64,000 nucleotides of DNA from a virus (IMGVR_UViG_3300001335_000125:1-64000), one strand, 5' to 3'; counted from the first letter of the stretch, positions 3,925 to 15,672 are shown. Made by a program: numbers and translations. Notes: generated by a model not told the origin, from the letters alone.

Positions 3925-4037
3925 TCTGCCCTCAGTGTGGAAAAAACATCTATCCATATAATCAAGTAATGAATGGAGAGAGAATAAAAGTAATACAATG
4001 TGAATGTGGCTATATGAAGATATTGGAGTATGAATAA
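3921..4037 (+). CDS. 38-aa Zn-ribbon microprotein; not in ORF track
   Basis: MICPQCG...QCECG; ATGA-coupled to upstream gene. Confidence 0.6.
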   Translation: MICPQCGKNIYPYNQVMNGERIKVIQCECGYMKILEYE

Positions 4038-4479
4038 GATGAGATTTGAGATAGTAAGAGATGATAGTAGAAAGTTTCCTAAAGATGATATACATTTACC
4101 AGAAATACAAACAGAAGGTTCATGTGGATATGACATCTACACAAATGAAGAAAAAATATTAGAACCCAGTCAACAACATCTATTCTGGACGGATGTTAAG
4201 GTAAAGTTAAATAAAGATGAATTTCTAATGATGGTTCCTAGGTCATCTATTGGAGTTAAATATAATCTTATGCTAGCAAATAGTGTTGGTATAATAGATC
4301 AGTCATATTATGAGAATTCTGACAATGATGGAAATATAGGAATATGTCTTTATAATTATGGTAATGTTCCTGTGAAAGTAGAAAAGGGTATGAGAGTAGC
4401 ACAGGGAATTGTAATGAAATATGTAATAAGTACAGTTGACTTACACAAACCTAGAGTTGGTGGTTTTGGAAGTACCTAG
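4030..4479 (+). CDS. dut: trimeric dUTPase
   Basis: GYDI, PRSS, GIIDQSY, AQG and C-terminal RVGGFGST motifs. Confidence 0.95.
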   Translation: MNKMRFEIVRDDSRKFPKDDIHLPEIQTEGSCGYDIYTNEEKILEPSQQHLFWTDVKVKLNKDEFLMMVPRSSIGVKYNLMLANSVGIIDQSYYENSDNDGNIGICLYNYGNVPVKVEKGMRVAQGIVMKYVISTVDLHKPRVGGFGST

Positions 4480-4973: not shown

Positions 4974-5900
4974 ATGTTAATAATTTGTTGGGATAGTTTA
5001 AGATTAGATGCAATAGAACCTTTCAAAGGAATACTTGGTGAGGAGTCTTGGAATGATATACCATCTATTGATGGGTTTACAGGACCAATATTACCTAGTG
5101 TAGTCTGTGGAAGTACACCTGAAAAGTTAGGAGTACCAAGAGATGATAGTGCATTTTGGAGTGGAATAAATCCAAAGAACATTGAAGATACTATCTTTGA
5201 CCACTTTGATGATTACATAACAATATCTAGACTCATAGGACCTCAGACAATGCCACATACCAAGTTAGTGCCATCACGAAGAGGTAAGTTGAAATTTATG
5301 CCACCAATCAAATTTAACGCTCAATCAAATTGGGATATAGATATCTGGAGATACTTTGGTAATAAATGGAGTATGTCATCTGATTACTGGGTAGATATGA
5401 TATTCTTCTGGACCTTTATCACACATGGGAATTTCTCATGTTATGATAGTCTTGGAGCAGTGGAGTCTCCAGAGATAAAGAACGGTGGATTAGTAATGAG
5501 AAGATTACAGAAACAGGATCCACAAGCACTAAGAGATTTATATATGATGGGAGTCTATAATGGATCAGAGACTCTTAAAGGATTAAATGAGATAAGTGGT
5601 GGTAAAGAACTAATAGTATGTTTCTCAGATCATAATGAATGTCTTAATGAAACAATGAATGGACAGTTAATGCCACCTGGACATTATAAAGATATGCATA
5701 AGATACCTGGATTGGAGAGAGTTCCGATATGGGTAAACAGGCCAAACGTAGAGTTTCCAGAGAATATGACGCAATCTGACATAAAAGATTGGATAGTAAA
5801 ACTAAGAGATGAATATGAAGATAATGATGAAGAGTACCAAGAGTTTAAACGTAAGAAGTTAGAGATGAAAAATGGTAATAAGAAAGAAGAAAAGAAGTAA
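4974..5900 (+). CDS. alkaline phosphatase/sulfatase-superfamily protein
   Basis: N-terminal IICWDSLRLD, TGPILPSVVCG (TxPxxxSxxxG) and C-terminal VCFSDHNE. Confidence 0.7.
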   Translation: MLIICWDSLRLDAIEPFKGILGEESWNDIPSIDGFTGPILPSVVCGSTPEKLGVPRDDSAFWSGINPKNIEDTIFDHFDDYITISRLIGPQTMPHTKLVPSRRGKLKFMPPIKFNAQSNWDIDIWRYFGNKWSMSSDYWVDMIFFWTFITHGNFSCYDSLGAVESPEIKNGGLVMRRLQKQDPQALRDLYMMGVYNGSETLKGLNEISGGKELIVCFSDHNECLNETMNGQLMPPGHYKDMHKIPGLERVPIWVNRPNVEFPENMTQSDIKDWIVKLRDEYEDNDEEYQEFKRKKLEMKNGNKKEEKK

Positions 5901-6270
5901 ATATCAGTGCCAGTATTGTGAATACAAGTGTAAAGATATGAACATCTTAAAACATCACGAAGTCACAATACATGGATATCATAGGGATGCTCCGTTCAGA
6001 AAGAAAGTCTACTACCAGAAAAAGTTATCACCCCCAAAAGATATGAGAGAAGTTCCTGGAACAATGAAATCTAAGGATGGTTTTGATGTTCCTATCATCT
6101 ATAAATGGAATCAAACTGCAGAGATGTATGATATCTATACAGATATTGGTGGTAAAAGATTGAAAGCAATCTATAGTGATGATATAGCTATGTATAAGGT
6201 TCCTGATTGGAGTGGGGCTAAAGCGGAGATGATTAAGTATGAAGAGAACCTTCGAGAATCCGATGAATAG
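5872..6270 (+). CDS. C2H2 zinc-finger protein
   Basis: C-x2-C-x12-H-x4-H (CQYC...HEVTIH). Confidence 0.7.
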   Translation: MVIRKKKRSKYQCQYCEYKCKDMNILKHHEVTIHGYHRDAPFRKKVYYQKKLSPPKDMREVPGTMKSKDGFDVPIIYKWNQTAEMYDIYTDIGGKRLKAIYSDDIAMYKVPDWSGAKAEMIKYEENLRESDE

Positions 6271-6772
6271 TCTATTACCAAAACCTAGGGTTGTAGATTG
6301 GGATGAGCTATTTATGACAATGACATTCCTTGTTGCAGCTAAGAGTAAGGATGCATTTACACATGTTGGTGCTGTAATAGTAGATGAGAATAATATTGTA
6401 AGAAGTCTTGGGTATAATGGATTTCCACGAGGATTAGAAGATGATAATGAAGAACGACAGAAACATCCTGAGAAGTATTTCTGGATGGTTCACTCAGAGC
6501 AGAACGCAATCTATAATGCTAAGACTGATTTAACTGGATGTAGAATGTATACAAATGGAATTCCATGTGCTGACTGTGCAAAAGCAATAATACAATCTGG
6601 TATTAAAGAAGTTATTGTACATAAACAATGGAGTGAAACCAATAATAAGTGGGAAGAAAGTTGTAAAAGAACTGTTGAGATGTTTGATGAGGTTGGTGTA
6701 CGTCTTAGATTTTATGATGGAGATATATTAAGGATACAAGGATGGAAAGACGGTAAAGTCTATACCATCTAG
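6263..6772 (+). CDS. dCMP deaminase
   Basis: WDELFM, GYNGFP, HSE and PCADC Zn motifs; ATG at 6263 preferred. Confidence 0.93.
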   Translation: MNSLLPKPRVVDWDELFMTMTFLVAAKSKDAFTHVGAVIVDENNIVRSLGYNGFPRGLEDDNEERQKHPEKYFWMVHSEQNAIYNAKTDLTGCRMYTNGIPCADCAKAIIQSGIKEVIVHKQWSETNNKWEESCKRTVEMFDEVGVRLRFYDGDILRIQGWKDGKVYTI

Positions 6773-6780
6773 AGGATATT

Positions 6781-6969
6781 ATGTTAGATGAATATAAAAG
6801 ATATCTATTAAGAGCATTATTTGAAATAGATTATGTATTGGAAGATATGGAATTTGATAATCTAAAAGGAAGAGAGTATCATAAATTAAAAGAAATTAAG
6901 AAAGAGATATTAAAATTAGATGATACTTTATCTAAGTCCTATAAAATTGAATGTGAGAAGTGGAAATAG
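6781..6969 (+). CDS. hypothetical protein
   Basis: 62-aa ORF with GAGG upstream. Confidence 0.6.
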   Translation: MLDEYKRYLLRALFEIDYVLEDMEFDNLKGREYHKLKEIKKEILKLDDTLSKSYKIECEKWK

Positions 6970-6971
6970 AT

Positions 6972-7130
6972 ATGGACAAAAATGGTATCTTATATATACT
7001 AGATAATTTGTTGGATGATGTTTATACAGGAGAAGATAACTATCCTAATTGGGATTTATATATTAAATCAAATTGGGAATCTATGTATGAAAATATAGTT
7101 AAAATAAAAGAATATATCAATGAAATCTAA
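6972..7130 (+). CDS. hypothetical 52-aa protein; not in ORF track
   Basis: fills the gap between 6969 and 7120 in operon orientation. Confidence 0.5.
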   Translation: MDKNGILYILDNLLDDVYTGEDNYPNWDLYIKSNWESMYENIVKIKEYINEI

Positions 7131-7950
7131 CTCTTCATTTATATGTTGGCAATATAAAGTAAAATTAGATAGATTAAAGGAAGATTTACAACAACTTCCC
7201 TTTGATATAAATAACATATCAATTAACGATATTAAATTTTCATACGAATCAAAGGAATTTACATATAAAGAAATTAAGGACTTTATAGAAAGATATGAAT
7301 GGTTAGGTAAAATTAGTTTATATCCATCTCATATATTTACTGCTAGATATAAAGAAATCATATGTGGAGTAGTTATTATGGACGTTCCATATTCACCTAC
7401 ATTTAATATAGAAAGACTAATTAGTAGAGGAGCATCAGCATCTTGGGCACCTCACAACTTATCTAGTAAATTAATTATGTTTTCAATAAAGTGGATGGTA
7501 TCTCACACTCAATTTAGGCAGTTTTCTGCATACTGTGATCCAGAAGCAAATGAGTTAGGAACAATATATCAAGCATGTAATTTCTATTATCTCGGAAATA
7601 AATTTGGATCTAAATATAAGTATATAACTCCGGAAGGAAATGAAGTATCAGATAGATATTTTAGAAATAGAAGTGTATATAAACGCTTAGCAATAGATAA
7701 TGGAATAGAGTGGAATATGAATTGGCAAGATAGAAGTAGTATCATCTTTAAAAATATTCCTGATGATATAGAATTAAAGTTAAGAGAGTTATCTAATGAA
7801 TATAAAAAGAGAAGTGAAAAGATTGAACAACCTCTTAAACATAAGTATATATATGTATTAGGAAGTAATAAAGGAGAAACTAAGAAACTACGTAAAGATT
7901 TTCTTAATACACACAAAATATATCCATACCCAAAAATAAGAGGGATATAA
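7120..7950 (+). CDS. Mom-like GNAT-fold DNA modification protein
   Basis: AYCDPEANELGTIYQACNFYYLG matches the Mom-family ADP..G..G.IYQA.NF.Y.G motif; also HNLSSKLI. Confidence 0.8.
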   Translation: MKSNSSFICWQYKVKLDRLKEDLQQLPFDINNISINDIKFSYESKEFTYKEIKDFIERYEWLGKISLYPSHIFTARYKEIICGVVIMDVPYSPTFNIERLISRGASASWAPHNLSSKLIMFSIKWMVSHTQFRQFSAYCDPEANELGTIYQACNFYYLGNKFGSKYKYITPEGNEVSDRYFRNRSVYKRLAIDNGIEWNMNWQDRSSIIFKNIPDDIELKLRELSNEYKKRSEKIEQPLKHKYIYVLGSNKGETKKLRKDFLNTHKIYPYPKIRGI

Positions 7951-8564
7951 TGAGTGTAGGTCATACTCCAAAATCTCATAAAGAGAAAAGAGAAAAACAA
8001 AAAGATAATATAGATAAATATCATCATCCAGAAGAAAAGATGAAACAATTAGATAACTACCATAAATATATATTAGGAAAAGATATTCTAGAAGTATTCG
8101 GTGGTCAAGGAAATCTTACAAAATACTATGAATCTGCATTAGATACTAAAGGGAGTGTTACTTCGCTAACAAAAGAGACAACTGGGGATAGTTTTGACTA
8201 CATCTACAAACTAAGAGGAGAACGTAAGAAATATGGAGTGATAGATATAGATTCATATGGATATCCTGATAAATTCTTTCCGGTAGTATTTGAGATGATG
8301 AAAGATGAGTGTCTATTAGTATTTACATTTCCTGTAGTAGGAGTTAACTGTTTGAACGGAATAACAGAACAACACTTTATCAACTTCTGGAGAAGTAATA
8401 GACCAACAATAGGGGATGTTACTGGAGTATTAACAGACTTTGCATTAAGAAATTGGTATCTTATAAGTTTATTAGATGTTGTGAAGATAGATAGGATATG
8501 GAGATTTGTCTTCTTATGTAAAAGACAAAAAGCAACAGAATTATGTAATACGAGAAATCAATAA
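7950..8564 (+). CDS. class I SAM-dependent methyltransferase-fold protein
   Basis: ILEVFGGQG (motif I) and IDIDSYGYP (DxDPYG-like). Confidence 0.7.
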   Translation: MSVGHTPKSHKEKREKQKDNIDKYHHPEEKMKQLDNYHKYILGKDILEVFGGQGNLTKYYESALDTKGSVTSLTKETTGDSFDYIYKLRGERKKYGVIDIDSYGYPDKFFPVVFEMMKDECLLVFTFPVVGVNCLNGITEQHFINFWRSNRPTIGDVTGVLTDFALRNWYLISLLDVVKIDRIWRFVFLCKRQKATELCNTRNQ

Positions 8565-9199
8565 TGAATAAAGAGATTAGAGAAATAGGTTTAGAAAAGG
8601 AGTTATTTCTTTTACGAGGAGAAGAGATAATGGAGCCTAGTAAGTTTGGATTTCCACATGATGAATTCCAATTCCTTGTAGAAATTAGAAGTTTACCAAG
8701 TGATAGATTATATCCAGTATATACAACAATTCAACAAGAAGAGTTACAATATAAGTTACGTGCCAATAAGTTTGGTATGGTATTAGATGATACTCCAAAT
8801 AGAACAGTTACAAAGGATTGGGTAGATGATTTATGGAATAAATACAATCTACATAGATTTAATGATTGTGATTATACTAAGAACATCTATAAAAACAACA
8901 AGTCATCACATCATCTTGGAGTATTAGATACAGGACATCCAGATACAAAGAAACTTACTGCAGGTATGCATGTACACTTCTCATCTAGAGATATCAATAC
9001 TGGGGAGGTTATAGATTTACCTATAGAAGATATTGCTAGTCAAATGGATGAGATATATTCTGTGTTAATAGAGGATTCTGGTAGAATTAAAGGGGAAATA
9101 GAACAGAAGCAACATGGTTGGGAATATCGTTCATTACCAGCAAATGCAGATGTATATGATGTGCTAAAGACATCCTTTAAGATACTGAGAGAATCATAA
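8564..9199 (+). CDS. COOH-NH2 ligase (phiEco32-like type 2 / glutamate-cysteine-ligase-like amidoligase)
   Basis: IGLEKELFL, LVEIR, AGMHVHF and HGWEYRSL motifs. Confidence 0.75.
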   Translation: MNKEIREIGLEKELFLLRGEEIMEPSKFGFPHDEFQFLVEIRSLPSDRLYPVYTTIQQEELQYKLRANKFGMVLDDTPNRTVTKDWVDDLWNKYNLHRFNDCDYTKNIYKNNKSSHHLGVLDTGHPDTKKLTAGMHVHFSSRDINTGEVIDLPIEDIASQMDEIYSVLIEDSGRIKGEIEQKQHGWEYRSLPANADVYDVLKTSFKILRES

Positions 9200-9741
9200 T
9201 GAATTATATTGTGTCTGGGTTGGAAAGGTCAGGAACATCTTTAATGATGCAAATATTAGACTGTGCTGGATTTCCTATAGCATGTGATAATGAAAGAAAA
9301 CCAGATATTAATAACCCAGAGGGATATTATGAGTTATATAATGGTAGAATAATAGATAGACTTGATGATATAGATGTTAGGTGTTATGATGAGAAAGTAA
9401 TTAAAATAACATCATATGGAATTAAGAAATTAAACTCAAATATAAATTATAAAATTATATATATGATACGGAATTTAGATGAGGTATATCAATCACAAAA
9501 TAAGATGATGGATATTAAGAAATCTAATAAGAAAAACACAATTGAATTATTAGATAAGATTAATAAAGGGACATTGAATTATATGTTAAGAAGTTCCAAT
9601 ATAGATTTTATAGTTGTCAATTATAATAATCTTTTAAAGTTTCCGTATAGGGAGTTAAAACGAATATCCACTTTCTTAAATAGAGATATAACACAAGGAG
9701 AAGTGGTAATAAAACCAAGTCTATGGAGAAATCGTAAATGA
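9199..9741 (+). CDS. sulfotransferase-family P-loop protein
   Basis: SGLERSGTSLMMQIL (PAPS-binding loop), GYYE, IYMIRN, YNNLL. Confidence 0.8.
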   Translation: MNYIVSGLERSGTSLMMQILDCAGFPIACDNERKPDINNPEGYYELYNGRIIDRLDDIDVRCYDEKVIKITSYGIKKLNSNINYKIIYMIRNLDEVYQSQNKMMDIKKSNKKNTIELLDKINKGTLNYMLRSSNIDFIVVNYNNLLKFPYRELKRISTFLNRDITQGEVVIKPSLWRNRK

Positions 9742-9929
9742 AGGATACTAAAGAAGTAAAAGAGATGTGTGAACAACATTGGAGTTATGTAAAGGGAATT
9801 CTTATTATGCATGGAGAAGACCTTAATGTTATAGATAAGATTGGATGGCACTATATTCAGGCAATGATGCATGGATATAAGCATGCTGTTCAAGACATGG
9901 ACACTGACAAAATGATCTATGTTGAATAA
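9738..9929 (+). CDS. hypothetical protein (HW.Y...HY...HG.KH pattern)
   Basis: ATGA-coupled 63-aa His-rich ORF. Confidence 0.65.
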   Translation: MKDTKEVKEMCEQHWSYVKGILIMHGEDLNVIDKIGWHYIQAMMHGYKHAVQDMDTDKMIYVE

Positions 9930-9940
9930 AGAGGATAGAG

Positions 9941-10195
9941 ATGACAACCGTTCTAGAGAAATTAAAAGAGTTGAAAGAAGAGTACGATGAGAGGATGGAG
10001 AAAATAGATAAGATTCTAGAAAATGCAGAAAAGGCAACTAATAGTATGGACAAAGCTATGAAACAAATGGAGAGTTCATTTATCGTATTAAAAGCTAAGA
10101 TAGAGAAATTGGATAGAGACTACGAATCTATGAAAGCATCTATGACCGAGTTAAAGAATAATAGATGGTTGAAATTATTTGGGGTGGATTTATGA
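9941..10195 (+). CDS. coiled-coil protein
   Basis: heptad-like K/E/L/M composition. Confidence 0.65.
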   Translation: MTTVLEKLKELKEEYDERMEKIDKILENAEKATNSMDKAMKQMESSFIVLKAKIEKLDRDYESMKASMTELKNNRWLKLFGVDL

Positions 10196-10410
10196 ATGGA
10201 TATACCAATATAAAAATACCAGTTGGGTTATACAATAGATATAAAGATATGATGATTAACACAGAATACAAAACTGTTGAAGACTATATGTTATATGTTT
10301 TAAGAGAAGAGGTAGCGAAGTATAACATGGTTGAAGATGGTTATGAATTAACAGAAGATGAAGAAGAGGCTATTAAGGTAAGATTAAGAGCACTTGGTTA
10401 TTTGGATTAG
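10192..10410 (+). CDS. archaeal-type CopG/ribbon-helix-helix protein
   Basis: IKIPVGLY...TVEDYMLYVLRE...EEEAIKVRLRALGYL; GGGGTGGA site before ATG 10192. Confidence 0.75.
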   Translation: MNGYTNIKIPVGLYNRYKDMMINTEYKTVEDYMLYVLREEVAKYNMVEDGYELTEDEEEAIKVRLRALGYLD

Positions 10411-10415
10411 ATATT

Positions 10416-10733
10416 ATGAAAACAATATTTGTATATGGCATCTTACAGAAACATCATAGTGCATTAGACTTTGGTATGACAGACGATATGTATAGAGGAG
10501 AAGCAACAATATCATCTTTTAAAAGAGAAAGTCTTGTACATATTAGTAAGACAGAAATTCCCAATAGTAAGGTACATGGAGAACTATGGGAAGTTCCGGA
10601 TGATATTGAAGAACACATATATCAGTTTGAAGCACAGTTTGGATATGAAAGAGTAAGTCTAATAGTTGAGGATGCTAATGGAGAGTATGTAAATGCAATC
10701 TTATATTTGGTGGATTGGAAAGATGAAACATAG
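10416..10733 (+). CDS. gamma-glutamylcyclotransferase (GGCT/AIG2-like)
   Basis: IFVYGIL, VHGELWEV, FE..FGYER. Confidence 0.8.
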   Translation: MKTIFVYGILQKHHSALDFGMTDDMYRGEATISSFKRESLVHISKTEIPNSKVHGELWEVPDDIEEHIYQFEAQFGYERVSLIVEDANGEYVNAILYLVDWKDET

Positions 10734-11319
10734 AATATTTATATATGATTTATTGATGAGAGGTGGATGTCCTGAAGAAGGAGGTCTAAAAGACAATGAC
10801 TATATAGGAACAGGATGTTTATATGGATATAAACGAGAGGGAGTATATTGGATAATTAAAACAGATAATCCAACAGCAATGACAATTGGTGATATATATG
10901 AAGTGGATGATGAAACATATAACAAGGTATCATCTTATTATAGCAGATTTGGATATCATCCAATCACTGAAAACATACCAACTCTAAAAGATTTAGATAA
11001 AGGAACTGATTGTGAATGTACATTATTTGTTAAGGAGGATAAGAAAATGATAAGTAAAAATGAAATGGCAATATTTGGAAGTAGTGACCCGTTTGAATGG
11101 CTAAAGGAAAGTTTTGATATATTGAATAGCGAGTTTAGGGATCTGTATACAAAGAACTCTGATATTATACACTTTAAGACAACTAATATAGAAGACTTTA
11201 AAGCAGAGATTGAACAGTATATGAAGGATAATCCTAATGCGAAGGTGTATGCATCCGGATTCATAATGTCAACAGAAAATCCAGAGAACAATAAATCCTT
11301 TAAGATAAGGAAAGAATAA
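10723..11319 (+). CDS. degenerate GGCT-like domain fused in frame to a hypothetical domain
   Basis: IFIYDLL...GDIYEVD; internal AAGGAGG plus in-frame ATG at 11047. Confidence 0.6.
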   Translation: MKHRIFIYDLLMRGGCPEEGGLKDNDYIGTGCLYGYKREGVYWIIKTDNPTAMTIGDIYEVDDETYNKVSSYYSRFGYHPITENIPTLKDLDKGTDCECTLFVKEDKKMISKNEMAIFGSSDPFEWLKESFDILNSEFRDLYTKNSDIIHFKTTNIEDFKAEIEQYMKDNPNAKVYASGFIMSTENPENNKSFKIRKE

Positions 11320-11320
11320 G

Positions 11321-11551
11321 ATGGGTTTTTGGGATGACGAAGCAACATCCGATACAACATATTTAAGAGCAAGATATTATTGCGTTGTATGTGAAAAGTT
11401 TTTTGAATTGTCACCTATTGCTCCATTAAGATGTCCTACTTGTTTTACTGATGCTAGGAATATTATAGGTCCTATACCTGCAAAGGAATATGATTTAAAT
11501 AAATTAATTCGAGAAAATAAAAGGAAATATGGACATGCACAAAGAAGATAA
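11321..11551 (+). CDS. Zn-ribbon protein (Rpo12/RPB12-like spacing)
   Basis: YYCVVCEKFFELSPIAPLRCPTC. Confidence 0.6.
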   Translation: MGFWDDEATSDTTYLRARYYCVVCEKFFELSPIAPLRCPTCFTDARNIIGPIPAKEYDLNKLIRENKRKYGHAQRR

Positions 11552-11771
11552 TGTGGAGATATATGGTGAACAAGGATGTGCTAGATGTTTACAAGTGAAG
11601 AAACTTATAGAAAAAAGAAATATACCCTATGAATACATAAAGATTGAAGATTTAGAATACCCTGACCATATAATAGATTTAATAACATTAAATAATAATG
11701 ATTTATATCCTCTAATTATGTATAAGGGAGAAATTGTAAGTTTAAAAGATGTATTAAGTATGAGGAAATAA
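11529..11771 (+). CDS. glutaredoxin/NrdH-like protein
   Basis: IYGEQGCARC, YP.IM; directly upstream of nrdD. Confidence 0.85.
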   Translation: MDMHKEDNVEIYGEQGCARCLQVKKLIEKRNIPYEYIKIEDLEYPDHIIDLITLNNNDLYPLIMYKGEIVSLKDVLSMRK

Positions 11772-11772
11772 A

Positions 11773-14700
11773 ATGTATTTACCTGTTTCATATGACCAAG
11801 AATTTGACGATTTATTTATGTATCTTAAAGGAAAATATCCCAAAAAATTATTTGACTTAGATGGGATCGGTGATCAACTAGATTTAAGTAAATTTAGTAA
11901 AGAGTTCTTTTCATCAAAAACAACTGCAGATATAAGTGTAGATGATAATGCAAATGTTGACGATATAAGTGTCATTGCATATGTAAAGGAATTACCAAAG
12001 CCATTCTTTAGGATAAATAGTTACTATATGTTATGGAAAGAATTAAGAAGATTATATGGAAAGGGAATTGCTAATGATATTGTAGATATGCAATTAAGTG
12101 GAGACATATATATAAATGATTTTCATGGATTAGGTTCCGGAATTTCTTATTGTTTCAATTATTCTACATATGATATTATGATGGAAGGTCTTCCTATGAT
12201 AAACAAGATAACATCCACTGCACCAAATCATTTGTACTCTTTCAAATCTCAGATAGAACAATTCACTATTATAGCAGCTAATAGCACTCTAGGAGCAACA
12301 GGATTAGCTGATTTGTTAATAATTATGTCATATTATGTAAAGAAAATATTAGATACAAAAGAGGATGCTCATTTTAAATTTAAGACTGATGAAGATGCAT
12401 GGACATATATAAAGGAGAACCTCGTATCTCTGATATATACTCTTAATCAACCAACAAGAGGTAATCAATGCTTAAGTGATGATACAAAAATATTAACTGA
12501 AAATGGGTGGAAGTCATACAACGAAATAATGCTCGGAGATAATATATATACAATGAATCTAAATAACAATAGATTAGAGTCTAAGAAAGTATTAAATATG
12601 TTCATTAAAGATTATGAAGGAGAAATGTATAATCTTAAAAATAGAATACAAGATCAACTGATCTCTCCTGAGCATAAGGTTGTTAGAAAAGTGTTTAATA
12701 CTAAAGATAACTATGTACTAGAACCAATAGAAGATGTATATAAACTAAAATCTCCACAAATAATTCCTATAGGATGTGACAACGATGAACCAGATTATGA
12801 TATAACTGATAATGAATTAAGATTAGTTTCATGGATTGTATCAGAAGGATCTGTAAGTAAAGATTATAGACTTACAATAAGTCAATCAAAAATAGAGAAT
12901 CCTAATTACTACTATGAAATTAAAGAATTATTAAACACTTTAAATTATACTTATTCAGAGTTAGTTGTGAAGACTGGACTAGGAAATGATACTAATATAT
13001 TTAGATTAATAAAGTCTGATTCACTAAAAATAATTAAGGAATTATTTGACAATAAAGGGATTAAATTTATTCCTGATTGGATAGGAAAACTATCACAAAG
13101 ACAAGCAAGAATATTTTTAGATACATATTTACAAGCAGATGGAAATATATCATCAAATACCATTGTTACCACAGTTCCTGAAGTTTTAGATAATCTTGAA
13201 ATATTGTGTGTAAAGGCAGGATATGGGTTTTCATCAAAACCAAAAAATATTGAACATAACAAACTATCTAAAAAACCACAATATCAGATAAGAATATTAA
13301 AACATAGGGATACGTATATTCAGAAGATAGAAAAAGTAAATTATAATGGTAAGATATGGTGTCCAACAACAGTTAATGGAACTGTTATAGCTAAGAGAAA
13401 TGGAAAGGTGTTTATTACTGGAAATAGTTGTTTTACTAATGTATCTATATATGATAATGCATTCTTAGATCATCTTATACCTGACTATCTTTTCCCGGAT
13501 GGTAGTACCCCAGATAAAGATATCATTAAAAAATTACAAGAACTATTGTTAGTAGTTCTCAATGAAGAGTTAAAAAGAACACCAATAACTTTTCCTATCG
13601 TAACTGCTTGTTTCTCGATAGATAAGGAAAATAATATACAAGACGAGGAGTTTGCTAGATTTATAGCAAAATATAATAAAGAGTATGGGTTTATTAATAT
13701 ATATTGTGGAACGTCTAGTACTTTATCATCTTGTTGTTTTCATCCAGATACTCCAATACTTGCAAAATCATCAAATGGGGTTAAATGGATGTCCTTTAAA
13801 GATTATCATGCCCTAAATTGGGAAAAAGATAAGAAGAATACAACTATATTTCATAACGGAAGTTGGTGTAAAGGCAACTCATTAAAATTACCGTATGGTA
13901 GAAAGTTATATAATATACAGACTTCCAATAATAAAGAAATATTAGTGACAGATGATCATATTCATCCAACAATAGAAGGAGATAAGCCTACTACAGAACT
14001 TACAGAGAATGATTATTTGTTATTTAATAGCCTACCACTAAATACATTTCCAGAAAAGGACATGAAATTAACTTATGAACAAGGATATCTTATAGGACTC
14101 TATTTAGGAGATGGTTCAAAATATAAGAATGTAAAATATGAGTCTTATACAAATACGCTCTCAATGGGATTAAATGACTATGATATTATTCCTATAGTGA
14201 GAAAAGCACTAGATGATTGGGGAATAACAACACAGATTCGTGCTAATGAAGTCGATTATAATGTTCTTTCTATACAAGTATGCTCTAAAGTTTTGTTTGA
14301 TATAATAAATGAATGGGTATACGGAAACTATGCTCATACTAAAGAGCTTAACATGCAATGTATAATTCAATCACTAAAATTTAGAGAGGGAATATTAGAT
14401 GGATGGTATAAATCGGATGGGGGAAACTCCAATAGGATATATACAACTTCAAAGAAACTATCAGAATGTGGAGAACTATTAATAACATCAATAGGAAAAC
14501 AATCCATAATTAATATAGAGGATAGAACCAATGAAAAAATTGTTATAAGAGGAGAAGTATATAACAGAAACTATCCAAGTATATGTGTAAGGTGGTATGA
14601 TTCTAAGAATAAACGAAGTATGTCAGGAGTATATAAAGTTAAAAACAACTCGATATACTATAAAATTAAGTCAATAAAGAAACTAGATGAAATTCAAGAT

Positions 14701-15672
14701 GAGGTGTATTGTTTTGAAATGAAAAATGAAGAGGAACCATACTTTACATTACCTAACGGAATAATTACTCATAACTGTAGGTTGAGATCTGATACAAATA
14801 ATGAGTATTTCAACTCATTTGGTTCGGGTTCATCTAAGATAGGGTCCCTTGGAGTTGTTACTATTAATCTACCACGACTAGCAATTAAATATAAATATGA
14901 TGAAGAGAAATTCTTTTCTAAATTAAGAGATATGGTTAAGGTATGTTCTCAAGTTAACAATGTTAAAAGAAAATTAGTTCAGAAGAGAATAGATAATGGA
15001 AATCATCCATTATACTCTTTAGGATTCATTAGTCTTGGTACTCAGTACTCTACCGTTGGATTGAATGGTCTTAATGAAGCAGTTAATATATTAGGATATG
15101 ATTTACTGGATGAGAAAGGACAGTCTGTAGCAGTAAATATAATGAATACTATTAATGATGAGAATGATAAGTATCAAAAACAATACAACTCTCCTCATAA
15201 TTGTGAGCAAGTTCCTGGAGAAAGTTTGTCTGTGAAATTAGCAGATAAGGATAAATTATTAAAATACCAAGATACATATGATATATACTCAAATCAATTT
15301 ATACCTTTGACAACTAATTCAGACATGTTAGATAGAATATACCTACAGGGTAAATTTGATAAACATTTCTCTGGAGGATCTATCTGTCATATTAATGTAG
15401 AGAGTAAAGTAGATAATGAAGACTATATAGTAGAACTTATAAAATCTAGTGCAAAGATGGGAGTTATTTATTTTGCATTAAATTACAATCTACAAAGATG
15501 TGTTAATGGACATCTTACAGTTGGTACTAAAGATAAATGCTCTGTATGTAATGGAGATATAGTAGATAATTATACAAGAGTGGTCGGTTTCTTAACAAAT
15601 ACTAAGAATTGGAACAAAACTCGCAGAGAAGTAGATTATCCAAATAGAAAATGGTATAGTGAAGTGGAATAA
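11773..15672 (+). CDS. nrdD: anaerobic (class III) ribonucleotide reductase with two inteins
   Basis: spliced motifs RGNQ/SCFTN and SSC/CRL; C-terminal CVNGH...CSVC and YTRVVGFL glycyl-radical motif; predicted spliced length 633 aa. Confidence 0.95.
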   Translation: MYLPVSYDQEFDDLFMYLKGKYPKKLFDLDGIGDQLDLSKFSKEFFSSKTTADISVDDNANVDDISVIAYVKELPKPFFRINSYYMLWKELRRLYGKGIANDIVDMQLSGDIYINDFHGLGSGISYCFNYSTYDIMMEGLPMINKITSTAPNHLYSFKSQIEQFTIIAANSTLGATGLADLLIIMSYYVKKILDTKEDAHFKFKTDEDAWTYIKENLVSLIYTLNQPTRGNQCLSDDTKILTENGWKSYNEIMLGDNIYTMNLNNNRLESKKVLNMFIKDYEGEMYNLKNRIQDQLISPEHKVVRKVFNTKDNYVLEPIEDVYKLKSPQIIPIGCDNDEPDYDITDNELRLVSWIVSEGSVSKDYRLTISQSKIENPNYYYEIKELLNTLNYTYSELVVKTGLGNDTNIFRLIKSDSLKIIKELFDNKGIKFIPDWIGKLSQRQARIFLDTYLQADGNISSNTIVTTVPEVLDNLEILCVKAGYGFSSKPKNIEHNKLSKKPQYQIRILKHRDTYIQKIEKVNYNGKIWCPTTVNGTVIAKRNGKVFITGNSCFTNVSIYDNAFLDHLIPDYLFPDGSTPDKDIIKKLQELLLVVLNEELKRTPITFPIVTACFSIDKENNIQDEEFARFIAKYNKEYGFINIYCGTSSTLSSCCFHPDTPILAKSSNGVKWMSFKDYHALNWEKDKKNTTIFHNGSWCKGNSLKLPYGRKLYNIQTSNNKEILVTDDHIHPTIEGDKPTTELTENDYLLFNSLPLNTFPEKDMKLTYEQGYLIGLYLGDGSKYKNVKYESYTNTLSMGLNDYDIIPIVRKALDDWGITTQIRANEVDYNVLSIQVCSKVLFDIINEWVYGNYAHTKELNMQCIIQSLKFREGILDGWYKSDGGNSNRIYTTSKKLSECGELLITSIGKQSIINIEDRTNEKIVIRGEVYNRNYPSICVRWYDSKNKRSMSGVYKVKNNSIYYKIKSIKKLDEIQDEVYCFEMKNEEEPYFTLPNGIITHNCRLRSDTNNEYFNSFGSGSSKIGSLGVVTINLPRLAIKYKYDEEKFFSKLRDMVKVCSQVNNVKRKLVQKRIDNGNHPLYSLGFISLGTQYSTVGLNGLNEAVNILGYDLLDEKGQSVAVNIMNTINDENDKYQKQYNSPHNCEQVPGESLSVKLADKDKLLKYQDTYDIYSNQFIPLTTNSDMLDRIYLQGKFDKHFSGGSICHINVESKVDNEDYIVELIKSSAKMGVIYFALNYNLQRCVNGHLTVGTKDKCSVCNGDIVDNYTRVVGFLTNTKNWNKTRREVDYPNRKWYSEVE
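12469..13425 (+). mobile_element. intein 1 of NrdD (319 aa, LAGLIDADG-type)
   Basis: starts CLSDDTKILTENGWK, block B ISPEHKV, VSEGS and QADG motifs, ends ITGN followed by Ser. Confidence 0.92.
13735..14775 (+). mobile_element. intein 2 of NrdD (347 aa, LAGLIDADG-type)
   Basis: starts CFHPDTPIL, VTDDH, YLGDG and KSDG motifs, ends ITHN followed by Cys. Confidence 0.93.

Follow-up and report, generated by a model that had tools for sequence, protein, structure and literature searches.

We analyzed a 64,000-nucleotide stretch of viral DNA (IMGVR_UViG_3300001335_000125:1-64000; "the window" below means the whole of this stretch) and concentrated on a block of genes at 8564-11319 that begins with a minimal carboxylate-amine (COOH-NH2) ligase of the glutamine synthetase (GS) fold. 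The source is an IMG/VR virus record of 73,890 bp that is about 64% complete, has a GC content of about 31%, and contains an HK97-type capsid gene; the host is probably archaeal. On the plus strand, from about 4 to 16 kb, lies a run of early and metabolic genes (Table 1), in which a Mom-like gene and a gene for a methyltransferase-fold protein, MT204, are followed by the ligase, a sulfotransferase of the type that uses 3'-phosphoadenosine-5'-phosphosulfate (PAPS), several small open reading frames (ORFs), and two genes resembling gamma-glutamyl cyclotransferase (GGCT). The plus-strand positions of the genes and the 1-4 nt overlaps that the first-pass annotation had described for the upstream genes were verified: stop and start codons overlap by 1 nt (TAATG) at 7950, by 1 nt at both 8564 and 9199, and by 4 nt at 9738-9741, connecting Mom, MT204, the ligase, the sulfotransferase, and a 63-aa ORF. 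No terminator-like site was found within 6700-11900, and a scan with a sigma-70 promoter model, which is probably inapplicable to this virus, showed no enrichment.

The ligase and its companion genes

The ligase has no match in Pfam, PHROGs, or NCBIfam, nor did a tblastn search against 50,697 phage records yield one; a search of PDB sequences with a profile of the ligase family (A1) returned matches to RXR only, which we judged to be due to chance. Structure comparison is more informative. The AlphaFold2 (AF2) model, made with an input of 40 homologues, has a predicted local distance difference test (pLDDT) score of 95.6 and a predicted template modeling score (pTM) of 0.91, and the VIA-align ranks 1-19 are all GS, glutamate-cysteine ligase (GCL), YbdK, PafA, or Dop structures with Z scores of 7.0-11.5 (144-185 residues aligned, root-mean-square deviation 2.9-4.2), the following match having a Z score of 5.2. 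Foldseek against the PDB matches the model to GS chains (probability 0.9-0.98), and the two best matches among the predicted viral structures of BFVD are annotated as COOH.NH2 ligases (E 2.2e-6 and 2.4e-4), the first of them being a COOH.NH2 ligase-type 2 from Salinivibrio phage CW02 with a template modeling (TM) score of 0.66. Both family alignments keep fifteen residues invariant (G9, E11, E13, D33, E40, G134, H136, D162, R174, K182, G185, E187, Y188, R189, and P192), and three more are nearly so (R42, H138, and E180); E11, E13, E40, H136, K182, E187, and R189 are unchanged across 52 relatives, the most distant of which are about 21% identical. This conserved set is the pattern that would be expected of an active carboxylate-amine ligase, and from it we infer equivalence to GS residues. 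The first-pass call of a COOH-NH2 ligase, made from the motifs GLEKE, GMHVHF, and EYRSL, is thus borne out, with structure comparison assigning the protein to the GS-type fold.

Membership in an existing family is another matter. PF14395 is matched by 8 of 52 distant relatives (best E 4.3e-7) and, among 40 close relatives, by 5 only, all with E≥0.028; the ligase protein has no match to it at E≤0.1, and the whole record none at E≤10. The ligase is not filed as a member of PF14395, to which it is related through its distant relatives and its fold. Among the proteins of phiEco32, the broader A2 ligase profile matches gp86 weakly (13.8 bits), the A1 profile matches none convincingly, and gp85 (205 aa) was ruled out as a homologue. 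The window ligase belongs to a large, uncharacterized, mostly viral family that has no Pfam model of its own; searches returned 77 clusters of it at the 90% identity level and, at the 50% level with E≤1e-3, 456 representatives.

Of the two GGCT-like genes called in the first-pass annotation, one stands in full and the other in part. GGCT1, of the gamma-glutamylamine cyclotransferase (GGACT) type, begins 1.2 kb past the end of the ligase on the same strand, matches PF06094 above its cut-off (E 8.8e-9, 36.4 bits vs 22.8) as well as phrog_2520, and retains both the YGxL motif, as VYGIL, and the catalytic Glu, in GELWEV. Its orthologue in the closest relative of this locus, L020, occupies the equivalent position with 55% identity and has Asp at the catalytic Glu column. 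The second gene (10693-11319) encodes a 208-aa fusion that is GGCT-like only in its N-terminal half, and more weakly so: its PF06094 match (E 0.013, 16.5 bits) falls under the same cut-off, its identity to GGCT1 is 28% over 78 residues, YDLL replaces YGxL, and Asp stands at the catalytic Glu column. It is a diverged paralogue of GGCT1 that shares the fold family and whose activity is doubtful. In L020, L056/L057, and L102 (L020:3469-3705, L056:10100-10384, L102:568-927), a separate gene past the ligase encodes the C-terminal domain of the fusion (residues ~119-197), and the joining of this domain to a duplicated, degenerate GGCT is a possible Rosetta-stone link.

The sulfotransferase was also assigned to the right family. 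It exceeds the cut-offs of both PF13469 (E 3.8e-9, 37.6 bits vs 27) and PF00685 (E 2.5e-7, 30.8 bits vs 22), and the top Foldseek matches of its AF2 model (pLDDT 90.3) are TPST2, Teg12, CurM-ST, and 3-OST, with E values from 6.7e-5; there are 38 matches with E≤1e-3, and those listed are mostly sulfotransferases, including the best, with a few P-loop kinases. The PAPS-binding motifs are intact: the 5'-phosphosulfate-binding (5'-PSB) loop S6-G7-x-E9-R10-S11-G12-T13-S14 and, for the 3'-phosphate-binding (3'-PB) site, R91 and S99 are invariant among 36 homologues. Full-length homologues at 41-54% identity are common among cellular archaea, with examples in Aciduliprofundum boonei, Thermoplasmatales, and the Asgard Thor- and Heimdallarchaeia. 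In A. boonei and in a Thermoplasmatales metagenome-assembled genome (MAG), the gene sits inside an operon of ATP-sulfurylase, DHH phosphoesterase, sulfotransferase, and adenosine 5'-phosphosulfate (APS) kinase (archaeal operons at L108:3943-10643, from A. boonei, and L109:3928-7094), where the sulfotransferases are about 185 aa long and 45-46% identical to that of the window; a sulfate symporter gene directly follows the operon in A. boonei and is divergent and upstream in the Thermoplasmatales MAG. In the viral locus L003, genes for a viral APS kinase and a 116-aa HIGH-type nucleotidyltransferase with faint similarity to ATP-sulfurylase come before the sulfotransferase. Given the archaeal operons and the context of L003, the natural partners of this sulfotransferase are PAPS-supply genes, of which, APS kinase included, we found no match in the window's 73.9-kb record (~64% complete). 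In three viral lineages the sulfotransferase gene is immediately upstream of a class I/II-type ribonucleotide reductase (RNR) large subunit (L003:11416-14344, L115:10001-12076, and L116:10001-12078). The A. boonei operon continues past its sulfate symporter with a 211-aa protein and a 510-aa Phosphodiest protein. The former was considered as a ligase homologue and rejected (hhalign probability 0.2); the latter was likewise rejected as a homologue of the window's 308-aa protein, BLASTP having found no significant similarity between them and only the N-terminal metal-site motif being alike.

Upstream of the ligase, the first-pass annotation had placed a Mom and a methyltransferase gene, of which the first is clear and the second tentative. 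The Mom-like protein matches PF25680 (E 1.1e-10, 42 bits vs a cut-off of 27.1) and phrog_1384. Among the residues named as essential in Mu Mom (H58, R111, S124, D149, R151, and Y159; PMC13219725), it retains equivalents of all except R151, whose column holds Glu here and Thr in the homologue from Vibrio phage 501E54-1; the latter, a stand-alone gene, is the sole DNA relative of the window gene among GenBank phages. Mu Mom alone moves glycine from Gly-tRNA-Gly to the N6 of adenine, with a subsequent rearrangement on the base, and requires no partner enzyme (PMC13219725). MT204 has a weak match to PF02005 (Trm1, E 0.012), and its ESM-Atlas neighbors, a language-model lead, are virus-only clusters, one of them 75% PF02005; its motifs include LEVFGGQG and DIDSYGYP. 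In the window its gene is translationally coupled on both sides, to Mom and to the ligase; in L020, where it lies directly upstream of the ligase with 88% identity, the coupling is to the ligase only, and in L075 it is 2.4 kb distant.

The 308-aa protein encoded farther upstream has no match in Pfam, PHROGs, or NCBIfam. Language-model comparison offers a lead, with ESM-Atlas matches of 0.91-0.94 to Sulfatase/Phosphodiest clusters and likeness to phosphoethanolamine-transferase and type-I phosphodiesterase clusters, and the N-terminus carries ICWDSLRLD, a motif like that of alkaline phosphatase (AlkP). The 63-aa and 81-aa ORFs that follow the ligase and sulfotransferase have no family match in the same three databases, none of which supports the first-pass call of the 81-aa ORF as an RHH regulator.

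Table 1. Genes of the plus-strand run around the ligase, with window coordinates and the basis of each assignment
Feature	Coordinates	Strand	Basis or remark
dUTPase	4030-4479	+	
308-aa protein	4974-5900	+	alkaline-phosphatase/sulfatase-superfamily-like
dCMP deaminase	6239-6772	+	
Mom-like GNAT, DNA adenine aminoacyl-transferase type	7120-7950	+	PF25680, phrog_1384
MT204, 204-aa Trm1-like methyltransferase-fold protein	7950-8564	+	weak PF02005
Minimal 211-aa GS-fold carboxylate-amine (COOH-NH2) ligase	8564-9199	+	fold, family alignments
PAPS-type sulfotransferase, 180 aa	9199-9741	+	PF13469, PF00685, fold
63-aa ORF	9738-9929	+	
84-aa coiled coil	9941-10195	+	sub-threshold coiled-coil-type matches only
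81-aa ORF	10165-10410	+	first annotated as a ribbon-helix-helix (RHH) regulator
GGCT1, GGACT/AIG2-type gamma-glutamyl(amine) cyclotransferase, 105 aa	10416-10733	+	PF06094, phrog_2520
208-aa fusion: diverged GGCT-like N-terminal domain and ~80-aa C-terminal domain	10693-11319	+	sub-cut-off PF06094
76-aa zinc-ribbon-like ORF		+	downstream of the 208-aa fusion gene
Glutaredoxin-like ORF		+	downstream of the 208-aa fusion gene; homologous to a PF00462 protein in L020
Intein-bearing NrdD	11773-15672	+	followed by NrdG

Gene neighborhoods of the ligase and the sulfotransferase

Loci gathered with the A1 profile include 96 with a ligase homologue, corresponding to 74 lineages at 95% identity, 20 of which extend 3 kb or more to each side of the ligase. 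The closest relative, L020, is collinear with the window, with proteins 76-90% identical. Its order is the 308-aa gene, a 132-aa gene, dCMP deaminase, a 62-aa ORF, MT204, and the ligase, then the 63-aa ORF (78% identity), the 81-aa ORF (71%), GGCT1, a free gene for the C-terminal domain of the fusion, the zinc ribbon, glutaredoxin, and NrdD. Mom, the sulfotransferase, the coiled-coil gene, and the second GGCT domain are missing from this collinear locus, and we therefore read all four in the window as insertions into a conserved backbone.

The wider set of lineages gives a similarly uneven picture. Mom is found beside the ligase in 1 of the 74, the window itself, and MT204 in 3 lineages. The sulfotransferase occurs in 6 of the 74, at offsets from the ligase of about -0.8 to -0.9 kb (three lineages), +0.6, +4.3, and +7.9 kb, and directly adjoins it only in the window. 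A GGACT gene lies near the ligase in four lineages (the window, L020, and the distant L012 and L016), and a GGACT profile run over about 95 ligase loci revealed no further one. L012 and L016 are complete viral genomes, the latter of 68.8 kb, in which the ligase is about 25% identical to that of the window, with GGACT 0.8-1.5 kb past it on the same strand and a PF14395 paralogue after that. In L016, a gene for a 172-aa MIB_HERC2-like protein (L016:9427-9945; PF06701, E 7e-8, 32.6 bits vs a cut-off of 33.5) lies upstream of the ligase homologue and overlaps it.

The commonest neighbors of the ligase are the RNR large subunit (10 lineages), dCMP deaminase (8), the 308-aa protein (8, within 4 kb), and a protein of about 334 aa (8), followed by the zinc-ribbon ORF (7), glycosyltransferases of family GT4 (6), ThyX (5), and dUTPase (5); RNR and dCMP deaminase each adjoin the ligase in 3 lineages. 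The ~334-aa protein (for example L022:6145-7173, L007:1940-2860, and L010:5662-6621) has one member with a faint match to PF04104, the large subunit of the archaeo-eukaryotic primase (E 0.008), which hints weakly at an archaeal host. Two further ligase contexts differ from that of the window. In L005:1-16618/L009, from a 79,309-bp virus that bears direct terminal repeats, a 40%-identical ligase homologue lies amid overlapping gene ends and is surrounded by four to five glycosyltransferases, three methyltransferases, a hexapeptide-repeat protein, and an epimerase of the short-chain dehydrogenase/reductase (SDR) type. In L081:5014-10201 (JAEAMF010000117.1, 150,656 bp), a 46%-identical homologue lies between genes for a C25 (gingipain-type) peptidase and a protein with a CarboxypepD_reg domain, in a context that may be cellular or prophage.

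A reverse survey, in which viral contigs were scanned with the sulfotransferase family alignment, found 5 other sulfotransferase-bearing viral contigs. The ligase is within 10 kb of the sulfotransferase in 1 of these, the sulfotransferase is immediately upstream of RNR in 2, and the 308-aa protein is within 10 kb of it in 3. The first-pass annotation had proposed a single pathway joining glutamyl ligation and removal, sulfation, and adenine acylation, a proposal that turns on its genes occurring together in relatives. They do not: Mom and the sulfotransferase accompany the ligase at the low counts given above, L020 has neither, and such a pathway finds no support in the neighborhood survey. 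We also considered that the general function of the ligase might be to amidate the product of Mom, and rejected this because 73 of the 74 ligase lineages have no Mom nearby.

Interpretation of the block

On balance we favor, with moderate confidence, an explanation in which the block is a co-transcribed and evolutionarily mosaic set of accessory genes around a core of MT204, the ligase, two small ORFs, and GGCT, with the sulfotransferase and Mom being separate. The block would belong to the early nucleotide-metabolism region of a tailed virus, and the core appears to be its only sub-unit with comparative support. From its fold and its conserved set of Glu, His, and Arg residues, the ligase is predicted to bind ATP and a divalent metal, to activate a carboxylate as an acyl-phosphate, and to couple the acyl group to an amine. 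The carboxylate would most probably be a gamma-glutamyl-type carboxyl, because the nearest folds handle glutamate gamma-carboxyl chemistry and because the recurrent partner is a GGCT. By the chemistry of its family, the GGACT-type enzyme should release a gamma-glutamyl group as 5-oxoproline and a free amine. GGCT1 is likely the counter-enzyme of the ligase, and the two may write and erase, or make and recycle, a gamma-glutamyl amide on a target, as a putative minimal form of the COOH-NH2 ligase/GGCT systems of phiEco32-type viruses.

Neither the sulfotransferase nor Mom would be a step of the ligase pathway. We judge the sulfotransferase to be an independently acquired PAPS enzyme of an archaeal family and not a part of the ligase system, because its position is variable, because in the reverse survey it mostly occurs without the ligase, and because its archaeal relatives sit in sulfate-activation operons; this tie to archaeal operons is a useful clue to both host and function. 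The Mom-like gene, in our judgment, would be a separately acquired, self-sufficient modifier of DNA adenine and an independent insertion, given its distribution among lineages, its stand-alone relative, and the sufficiency of Mu Mom with Gly-tRNA-Gly (PMC13219725).

Several points weigh against this explanation. We infer the gamma-glutamyl specificity from the fold relatives and the GGCT neighbor only, and the pairing of ligase and GGACT is facultative, being present in 4 of the 74 lineages and, among the 20 with 3 kb or more of flanking sequence on each side, in 2. The 1-nt overlaps that couple Mom, MT204, the ligase, and the sulfotransferase could reflect a functional combination that evolved locally and is invisible to comparison between genomes, and two arrangements, that of the window and that of L001/L033/L036/L037, place the sulfotransferase no more than 1 kb from the ligase. 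Finally, as the record is about 64% complete, genes for ATP-grasp and glutamine amidotransferase (GATase) enzymes could sit in its missing part.

Some of the same observations speak for the single hypermodification pathway of the first-pass annotation, in which Mom, MT204, the ligase, the sulfotransferase, and the GGCTs would together act on DNA, glycan, or virion protein. The genes are co-directional, overlap by 1-4 nt from 7120 to 9929 with no terminator-like site, and all encode enzymes that look catalytically competent from their sequences; the closeness of sulfotransferase and ligase, in a different order, in L001/L033/L036/L037 could be added. Even so, we regard such a pathway as very improbable. 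A locus as similar as L020 (76-90%) keeps the gene order without Mom, the sulfotransferase, or the second GGCT domain; Mom accompanies the ligase in one lineage and the sulfotransferase in six, at offsets that range from -0.9 to +7.9 kb; 4 of the 5 other sulfotransferase-bearing viral contigs have no ligase within 10 kb; the conserved partners of the sulfotransferase family are PAPS-synthesis genes; and Mu Mom has no need of a partner enzyme (PMC13219725). Tight translational coupling in a virus genome need not mean a shared pathway, and here it is accompanied by what looks like modular insertion of Mom and the sulfotransferase.

Two further explanations keep the ligase at the center and assign it a different role. 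It could belong to a nucleotide and redox module, making a gamma-Glu-Cys-like thiol for glutaredoxin and RNR or glutamylating a cofactor or nucleotide, with GGCT acting in salvage or turnover. The frequency of RNR, dCMP deaminase, ThyX, and dUTPase among the ligase neighbors fits this idea, as do the glutaredoxin and NrdD/NrdG genes just downstream in the window and the presence of GCLs and YbdK among the structural neighbors (Z 9-11, tied with GS). We nevertheless think it unlikely, since the tie between GS and GCL matches means that the fold selects no substrate, the neighborhood may merely reflect a shared region of early accessory genes, and the sulfotransferase and AlkP-like gene in the same region have no obvious nucleotide role. 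Alternatively, the ligase, the sulfotransferase, and the AlkP-like protein could work alongside the glycosylation machinery of the virus itself and decorate a glycan of the virion or host surface through sugar-acid amidation, sulfation, and phospho-group transfer, respectively. Sulfated surface glycans are known from archaea; in L005/L009 (a complete 79-kb virus), glycosyltransferase, methyltransferase, and epimerase genes are packed tightly around the ligase homologue; in 6 lineages, GT4-type genes precede the ligase by 1.6-3.7 kb; and sugar-nucleotide genes flank it in L019 and L021. The window ligase, however, sits among nucleotide-metabolism genes, the glycosyltransferase association is confined to a minority of lineages, the GGCT partner is left unexplained, and we know of no GS-fold sugar-acid amidoligase, which together make the glycan explanation quite unlikely.

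A more speculative possibility, which we regard as rather unlikely, is that the family of ~205-aa ligases is regularly resident in viral nucleotide-metabolism modules beside RNR, dCMP deaminase, and ThyX, where it makes an undescribed gamma-glutamyl-type conjugate for replication that is turned over by GGCT; the conjugate would be a thiol, a cofactor, a nucleotide, or a small protein tag. In a weaker variant, the archaeal-type sulfotransferase and the AlkP-like protein might constitute a second, separate viral sulfation module.

Comparison with known systems

Phage COOH-NH2 ligases are described as associated with GGCT in the passages of PMC2938197 and PMC10580990 that cite Iyer et al. 2009. 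In phiEco32, GGACT, an ATP-grasp enzyme, GATase_6, Amidoligase_2, and PF14395 are encoded within 8 kb. The window resembles such systems in having a GS-fold ligase with a shared conserved core and a GGACT nearby, and differs in that its ligase is 211 aa long, compared with 268-428 aa, and has no match to PF14395 or PF12224. The two ligase types are not mutually exclusive, as L012 and L016 carry both as paralogues. The first-pass annotation had seen neither an ATP-grasp ligase nor an amidotransferase beside the ligase and GGCT, and we agree: no match to GATase_6 or ATP-grasp_4 (PF13522, PF13535), Amidoligase_2 (PF12224), or PF14395 was found in the 73.9-kb record (~64% complete), although this Pfam-based absence is limited for ATP-grasp by the fact that phiEco32's own ATP-grasp enzyme gives no Pfam match. 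The closest relative, L020, likewise has neither partner.

Compared with GS, GCL, YbdK, and PafA, the ligase shares the fold over its whole length (Z 11.5 with human GS, 2ojw; 11.0 with YbdK, 1tt4, of the GCS2 family; 9-10 with GCLs; 8.2-8.4 with PafA/Dop) and the ExE, HxH, and ExR-type residues, whereas the matched proteins have 350-730 aa, of which about 160-185 residues align, and are 8-17% identical to it. It is a catalytic core only, without a beta-grasp and without the N-terminal domain and oligomerization elements of GS. GGCT1 resembles GGACT/AIG2-like proteins such as phiEco32 gp77 in its above-cut-off family match, YGxL motif, and catalytic Glu; unlike them it is short (105 aa), and the second copy, fused to another domain, has lost the consensus at both signature positions.

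The two enzymes that we set apart from the ligase also have recognizable counterparts. The sulfotransferase shares 41-54% identity, a length of about 185 aa, and the same PAPS-binding motifs with those of the archaeal operons, as in A. boonei, and differs in having no PAPS-synthesis partner in its record, whereas the related L003 has an APS kinase. The Mom-like protein shares with Mu Mom the PF25680 match and five of the six named residues; unlike Mu Mom, to which it is 26% identical, it has 276 aa, a longer insertion, Glu at the R151 column, and no com-like gene. It also lies outside 8564-11319, and its distribution does not follow that of the ligase.

In kind, then, the window belongs with the viral COOH-NH2 ligase/GGCT systems, which Iyer et al. 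reportedly predicted for phages in 2009 (Mol BioSyst 5:1636) and which are still without a known substrate. What is new is a much smaller and very widespread ligase subfamily with a high-confidence structural model and a clear set of conserved active-site residues, and its occurrence without ATP-grasp and amidotransferase partners makes it a simple entry point for the biochemistry of these systems.

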